Positions 206-266 of a stretch of DNA of 365 bases are shown here, piece after piece (positions within the stretch are counted from its first letter, which is position 1; each line of letters opens with the position of its first letter). The DNA lies in assembly GCF_003334335.1 (NCBI RefSeq), contig NZ_QOWQ01000205.1. One strand, written 5' to 3'. The notes beneath the pieces are model-generated. The model made no database searches and had not been told where the DNA came from. It worked only from the letters and a program-made list of their open reading frames with translations. Source of the DNA: Escherichia coli (GTDB lineage Bacteria; Pseudomonadota; Gammaproteobacteria; Enterobacterales; Enterobacteriaceae). Both the position numbers and the translations under genes were made by a program.

Positions 206-266
206 TGAGTCATGACGATGACACTGGCAAATCAGGTGATAAAACCTAAAAGGAGCAGAACACACG

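Follow-up and report, generated by a model that had tools for sequence, protein, structure and literature searches.

A short inverted repeat in the 5′ leader of Escherichia coli irmA is probably fortuitous

Results

The yeeR–irmA junction

The stretch of DNA that we analysed, referred to below as the window (365 nt), contains the E. coli yeeR–irmA junction, with both genes on the minus strand. The features that matter here are as follows, in the direction of transcription:

267..365, minus strand: 3′ end of yeeR, its last 99 nt, with the stop codon TAA at 269..267 (annotation of loci L001-L003)
192..266, minus strand: yeeR–irmA spacer, 75 nt, which carries the irmA promoter and leader in EAEC 042 (PMC9431211)
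257..265, minus strand: counterpart of the -10 box that BPROM predicts in 042, where it is GGCTATTCT or GAGTATTCT (Supplementary Fig. S3); here it is GTGTGTTCT
244, minus strand: equivalent of irmA +1, taken by alignment from the RACE 5′ end of strain 042 and not measured in the window haplotype
209..222, minus strand: dyad GTCAT-CGTC-ATGAC, with the 5′ arm at 222..218, the loop at 217..214 and the 3′ arm at 213..209
200..205, minus strand: Shine-Dalgarno (SD) GAGAGG of irmA, 8 nt before the ATG (from the sequence)
178..205, minus strand: predicted SD hairpin, in which the SD AGAGGU pairs with CACCUGU (codons 3-5) and the AUG lies in the loop; about -5.0 kcal/mol
1..191, minus strand: 5′ part of irmA, with the ATG at 191..189, encoding an IrmA family protein (PF18673); the gene continues beyond the window

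The YeeR family protein is 838 aa long in the RefSeq annotation, and the neighbouring gene matches Pfam YeeR_C. irmA begins MIHLFKTCIITGVILGLTWSAPLRAQ and has its first 191 nt inside the window; the start of its coding sequence agrees both with its translation and with the RefSeq annotation of a 99.7%-identical locus, and its homologues have PF18673. By megablast, the window was found in 2,195 of 5,426 complete E. coli genomes, with the best record at 99.7% identity. Its haplotype is a minority one: across the 151 nt surrounding the spacer, 201 of 2187 E. coli records match it at 99% or more.

Annotation gives the gene order of the surrounding island as GTPase–agn43–yeeR–irmA–DUF905–DUF932–antirestriction–yeeS–yeeT–cbeA–cbtA, and the island carrying agn43-yeeR-irmA is a CP4-44-like element. 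The IrmA protein, secreted by pathogenic E. coli, mimics an interleukin receptor and is a vaccine candidate, and genuine controls on its expression would interest the field. DNA essentially identical to the E. coli junction also occurs in a 4-kb contig of an Oxalobacter sp. MAG (L004) and in a 396-nt contig of Novosphingobium sp. BW1 (L008, coverage 0.9), copies that most likely reflect misbinning or contamination rather than a true presence in those taxa.

Position of the dyad in the irmA leader

On the minus strand, positions 222..209 read GTCATCGTCATGAC, two perfect 5-bp arms around a 4-nt spacer, and they overlap an 8-bp palindrome, GTCATGAC, at 209..216 of the plus strand. The dyad is followed in turn by TCA (3 nt), GAGAGG at 205..200, a further 8 nt and the ATG at 191..189. 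An earlier note, made from the letters alone, had described this arrangement as a dyad-symmetric element in the 5′ leader, and its coordinates for the sequence, the arms, the spacer, the palindrome and the 3-nt gap to the SD all prove exact on direct reading.

To place the dyad relative to the transcript, we drew on published work at this locus. In UPEC, agn43-yeeR-irmA is cotranscribed and OxyR-repressed (Moriel et al. 2016, PMC4807369), and in EAEC 042 a separate promoter within the yeeR–irmA spacer drives irmA, with a 5′ end mapped by RACE (Bernabeu et al. 2022, PMC9431211). We located +1 from the mutagenesis primer Mut_prom_4509 and the stated changes at +1, -10, -19 and -20 (PMC9431211), aligned to the window. 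The +1 of 042 is the base following CCTTTTACG and corresponds to window T244, so that the dyad occupies +23..+36 of a 53-nt leader; its assignment to the irmA leader thus holds by alignment with the 042 data. The RT-PCR primer Int fw (TTGTCAGTGTCATCGTCATG) sits on the dyad and yielded a product (PMC9431211), and the dyad is therefore transcribed, whichever transcription model applies.

The -10 hexamer, TATTCT in both 042 alleles, is TGTTCT in the window haplotype, and the BPROM-predicted -35 box at 290..285 (minus strand) is TTCCCC in the window and TTACCC in both 042 alleles. Judging from these bases, the spacer promoter of the window haplotype may have little or no activity, and irmA would then rely on read-through from agn43. 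The authors of the 042 study themselves remark that the -10 box predicted there is placed too far upstream (PMC9431211). That 5′ end lies in AGG/UUUUAU (window 246..240, minus strand, around T244). RNase E has a cleavage preference for RN/WUU, which this sequence fits. The 5′ end at T244 could arise by processing of the agn43-yeeR-irmA transcript instead of, or besides, marking a primary start.

A terminator scan of the window found no terminator-like sites; the stem is followed by UCAGAGAGG. The only sigma-70-like consensus match is TTAACC-16-AATAAT on the plus strand at 140-167, antisense inside irmA; a transcript from it would run over the irmA start and the dyad, and the match is at chance level (one found, 0.6 expected).

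Inverted repeats expected by chance

Perfect inverted repeats were tallied for stems of 5 or more and loops of 3-8, with dinucleotide shuffles as the null. The window contains two, compared with a mean of 2.39 per shuffled window, and 87% of the shuffles contain at least one. For the 75-nt spacer the shuffled mean is 0.32, with one or more in 24% of shuffles. Real related DNA (1.15 Mb from the collected loci) has 2.85 such repeats per 365 nt and 0.59 per 75 nt, and an 8-bp palindrome is present in 79% of dinucleotide-shuffled windows. The dyad is thus no more frequent than chance and is statistically unremarkable; the caveat of the earlier note, that a 14-bp element may be chance, is favoured by the shuffles and the real DNA alike. 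The second inverted repeat in the window, TGCCC-GGAGTG-GGGCA at 117-132, lies in the stretch of irmA coding for the end of the signal peptide and shows that repeats of this kind are commonplace.

Looking at palindromes on their own gives a different, post hoc observation. The window has six perfect 8-bp palindromes, starting at plus-strand positions 56, 63, 209, 275, 305 and 328 (AAATATTT, TCCCGGGA, GTCATGAC, GGAGCTCC, GGTTAACC and GATGCATC), where about 1.6 are expected from dinucleotide shuffles (P of six or more, approximately 0.004). Six or more occur in only 0.27% of the 365-nt windows from the collected loci, many of which contain the same region, and the majority haplotype also has five of the six.

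Natural variation

We examined variation by scanning metagenome contigs with a pattern that fixed the flanks only and left the dyad free, which found at least 120 loci. These, one viral contig, and E. coli genome loci spanning the identity range make up 132 sampled copies, which resolve into 12 spacer haplotypes and have the dyad intact in about 95% of cases. The natural variants in and beside the dyad, with their exact matches among complete genomes, are:

ATGAT (C to T at 209): leaves a G-U pair in RNA and breaks the palindrome in DNA; 37 matches
GTAAT (C to A at 220): breaks a C-G pair; 24 matches
+T between the dyad and the SD: alters the spacing; 126 matches

Of the five pairs of the dyad, three are invariant, one has a one-sided change (GC to GU), one is broken and none shows compensatory change. 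Segregating sites reach a density of 0.143 in the dyad, against 0.147 for third codon positions of yeeR and 0.25 for the remaining unconstrained spacer; diversity in the irmA coding region was left out of this comparison because indel-bearing copies make ungapped extraction unreliable. By this measure the dyad appears to be conserved only as much as everything else in a young locus family whose members share at least 90% identity across the 151 nt that were searched around the spacer, so that tests of conservation and covariation are low in power. The SD GAGAGG is invariant across the sampled haplotypes, partly because of the way in which the loci were found. The +T variant (GACTCATGAGAGG) makes a second 8-bp palindrome, CTCATGAG, beside GTCATGAC (L002 6144-6175; also L130 and L134), and lengthens the predicted SD hairpin.

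A protein search of genome contigs with IrmA gave only five loci, three of them distant (Erwinia, Winslowiella and Photorhabdus), and no homologues of informative intermediate divergence came to light. Genes encoding IrmA of 79-86% identity were considered as intermediates and set aside, since they proved to be forms of this same E. coli locus that keep the standard spacer. The next group, of about 60% identity, consists of Erwinia, Winslowiella and Photorhabdus members and a second E. coli paralogue group. It lies in CP4-57-like islands (L137-L139 2552-3450; L005-L007 about 2950-3010) with the order GTPase, a gene with a faint WYL match, an unassigned gene, YfjS_YafY, IrmA, DUF905, DUF932 and others. 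In this group, irmA overlaps the preceding yfjS/yafY-like gene by ATGA and has no spacer, an overlap of start and stop that suggests translational coupling, and the region upstream of the Erwinia, Winslowiella and Photorhabdus loci is not homologous to the yeeR–irmA spacer. From its gene arrangements, the IrmA family appears to have two quite different expression architectures. As to conservation of the dyad among orthologous upstream regions, which the earlier note had put forward as a check, the dyad is intact in the great majority of close copies but no better kept than yeeR third positions, and the paralogues of about 60% identity have no spacer to hold it.

Predicted folding of the leader and the ribosome-binding site

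The isolated dyad hairpin is predicted to be weak, at -2.3 kcal/mol as RNA (-1.9 as DNA) and -1.0 kcal/mol as RNA with the natural C to U change. Stability beyond that of shuffled sequences was sought in the irmA leader with early coding sequence and was absent for both segments folded, 266..160 (z = +0.36) and 244..150 (z = -0.92, with 32 of 200 shuffles equally or more stable). In the window haplotype the hairpin is part of the minimum-energy fold, with an ensemble probability of 0.62, which drops to 0.05 with C209U and to 0.002 with GUAAU. In two haplotypes that account for 111 of the 132 sampled loci, the probability is 0.19 and the hairpin is not in the minimum-energy fold. The small mRNA hairpin suggested in the earlier note is thus predicted for the window haplotype but hardly for the majority one.

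Any effect on translation initiation was assessed through the energy needed to open the ribosome-binding site. From SD-2 to AUG+12 this is 8.01 kcal/mol in the window sequence, and mutants of the dyad give 8.12 (C209U), 7.99 (GUAAU) and 7.78 kcal/mol (5′ arm scrambled). Natural haplotypes range from 6.7 to 8.6 kcal/mol, unrelated to the state of the dyad. The SD (205..200) lies outside the dyad (222..209), and predicted folds pair it with codons 3-5 and not with the dyad. The minimum-energy folds of 10 of 11 haplotypes include this SD–codons 3-5 hairpin; on these models it, and not the dyad, is the structure that recurs in the initiation region of irmA. All nine pairs of the SD hairpin are invariant and hence neutral on covariation, several of the positions being fixed by the pattern or anchor used to find the loci. 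The heptamer TCACCTG, which is anti-SD-like, is present as a direct repeat in the leader (239..233) and the coding sequence (186..180).

Two larger structures that would involve the dyad were considered and rejected. A long-range helix, GCCAGU/ACUGGC, encloses the dyad in the minimum-energy fold of the window; it is particular to this haplotype, with two of the six pairs failing in 8 and in 9 of the 11 haplotypes. An alternative fold, AUUUGCC–GGUAAAU with the dyad at its tip, is lost once more coding sequence is included (z +0.36). In a scan against Rfam 15, with E values up to 10, the sole match was an archaeal snoRNA, which scored 14 bits where the gathering score is 38.

Folding the leader was the check that the earlier note had attached to its proposal of a hairpin modulating translation initiation, and it returns a weak stem that does not take in the SD. 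With the SD excluded, the opening energy unchanged by loss of the dyad, the leader no stabler than shuffles and no compensatory change, that proposal is not borne out. Nor is the dyad, on the predicted folds, an SD-sequestering control hairpin, the SD being unpaired with it and accessibility unaltered.

Alleles of strain 042

Strain 042 provides a natural comparison, since its silent allele, irmA_2244, has the perfect dyad and its expressed allele, irmA_4509, has ATGAT, as read from the deletion primers. Promoter–lacZ clones of both alleles in pUJ8 share the reverse primer promirmA rv (...TCATGACGATGACACTGACAA), which ends inside the dyad, before the polymorphic base. These clones still reproduced the large difference in expression, and converting four positions of 4509 (+1, -10, -19, -20) to the 2244 sequence lowered expression (PMC9431211). 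As the difference persists in clones that lack the polymorphic base, and the four upstream changes suffice, the allele difference maps upstream of the dyad. The clones are transcriptional fusions, and a small translational effect of the dyad may remain compatible with them.

Discussion

Taken together, these results indicate that the dyad is probably a fortuitous short inverted repeat in the 5′ untranslated leader of irmA, which also forms part of the spacer after yeeR. The sequence around it is locally repetitive, GTCATC-GTCATG-AC (extended by -TCATGA in the +T variant), and this local repetition suggests an origin by small-scale duplication or slippage. As RNA it would form at most a marginal 5-bp hairpin, with the SD outside it and no predicted effect on ribosome access, and as DNA nothing appears to mark it as a protein-binding site. 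The known control of irmA acts elsewhere, through the OxyR/Dam-controlled agn43 promoter by way of agn43-yeeR-irmA cotranscription, and through the spacer promoter upstream of the dyad. Three observations run counter to the chance reading, namely that about 95% of sampled copies keep the dyad intact, that the hairpin reaches 0.62 in the window haplotype, and that in 042 it is the silent allele that has the perfect dyad and the expressed one that has the weakened G-U form. The dyad adds nothing to what promoter and operon studies already published explain, and the region can be annotated simply as the leader already known for irmA, claiming no further regulatory element.

The hairpin might instead mildly tune translation initiation or mRNA stability, with C to U and C to A acting as expression alleles. 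The hairpin probability of 0.62 in the window haplotype and its fall with both variants fit this idea, as do the G-U pair retained by C to U, the Int fw product from a transcribed dyad, and the pairing in 042 of a silent allele with a perfect stem and an expressed allele with a weakened one. We nevertheless regard such tuning as unlikely. The stem is worth only -2.3 kcal/mol, excludes the SD and can be removed with the opening energy of the ribosome-binding site staying the same; it forms at 0.19 in the majority haplotype, within a leader no stabler than its shuffles; one of its variants breaks a pair and none compensates; and the 042 difference was reproduced in the absence of the polymorphic base. 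In its most specific form, the perfect stem (window and silent 042) would slightly dampen IrmA translation or alter decay of the leader, and a weakened stem (042 irmA_4509, O104:H4) or a broken one would raise expression. This form we consider very improbable; were it true, variation in the dyad would make expression alleles of a virulence factor that is a vaccine candidate. The probability is close to negligible that the palindrome is incidental to an ATG at 213..211, within the dyad, that starts a 60-codon ORF in the +1 frame relative to irmA. This ORF is open in the window and the majority haplotypes, but no SD-like sequence lies upstream of its ATG, the +T variant (126 complete genomes) reduces it to ATG ACT CAT GAG AGG TAA, five codons, and the very low diversity of the locus explains its persistence elsewhere.

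The dyad might alternatively act as DNA, as an operator for a dimeric regulator that would form a roadblock at +23..+36, with the factor behind the OxyR- or Hha-dependent repression of irmA_4509 or an island-encoded protein as candidates. Its 5-4-5 geometry resembles FNR-type dimer sites, and irmA_4509 of 042 is repressed by OxyR and Hha though transcribed from its own promoter. However, the FNR box is TTGAT-N4-ATCAA, which the dyad matches at only 6 of 10 positions, the critical G being absent; OxyR repeats are ATAG-N7-CTAT, which the dyad does not resemble, and the dyad contains no GATC. To our knowledge, no matching enterobacterial operator exists, and a full-text literature search for GTCATGAC with 'operator' gave nothing relevant to enterobacteria. 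Allowing up to one mismatch, the only match to GTCAT-N4-ATGAC in the 12-kb island is the dyad itself, with 0.47 expected by chance, and the allele that is regulated, 4509, is the one with the broken palindrome. The dyad does have suitable symmetry, yet such symmetry arises by chance 0.3-0.6 times per 75 nt, and neither a second copy in the 12-kb island nor conservation beyond that of yeeR third codon positions (0.143 vs 0.147) accompanies it. The operator-like form that the earlier note saw in the dyad thus finds no counterpart in the island, in its conservation or in the literature, and we hold an operator function to be highly unlikely.

Known systems offer several points of comparison with the dyad. 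Intercistronic stabiliser hairpins, REP elements and intrinsic terminators likewise lie between cotranscribed genes; unlike them, the irmA dyad has neither a long G+C-rich stem nor a U tract, and a stem of 5 bp is too weak to stop exonucleases. Operators of the CRP/FNR family have the same 5-N4-5 geometry, whereas the dyad is a single copy at +23..+36, an atypical position for activation or repression. SD-occluding hairpins, such as ROSE and fourU thermometers and translational operators, are also leader stem-loops near the ribosome-binding site. Those hairpins, however, pair the SD or the AUG and are conserved, while the dyad stem, at -2.3 kcal/mol, ends 3 nt short of the SD. The closest comparison is with the 042 irmA leader (PMC9431211) and the UPEC operon (PMC4807369), neither report of which mentions or tests the dyad. 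Both are the same locus as the window, with a spacer that is homologous base for base. Relative to the 042 alleles the window is a third, minority haplotype that differs in bases of the -35 and -10 boxes, and its dyad is identical to that of irmA_2244, with the same SD and start.
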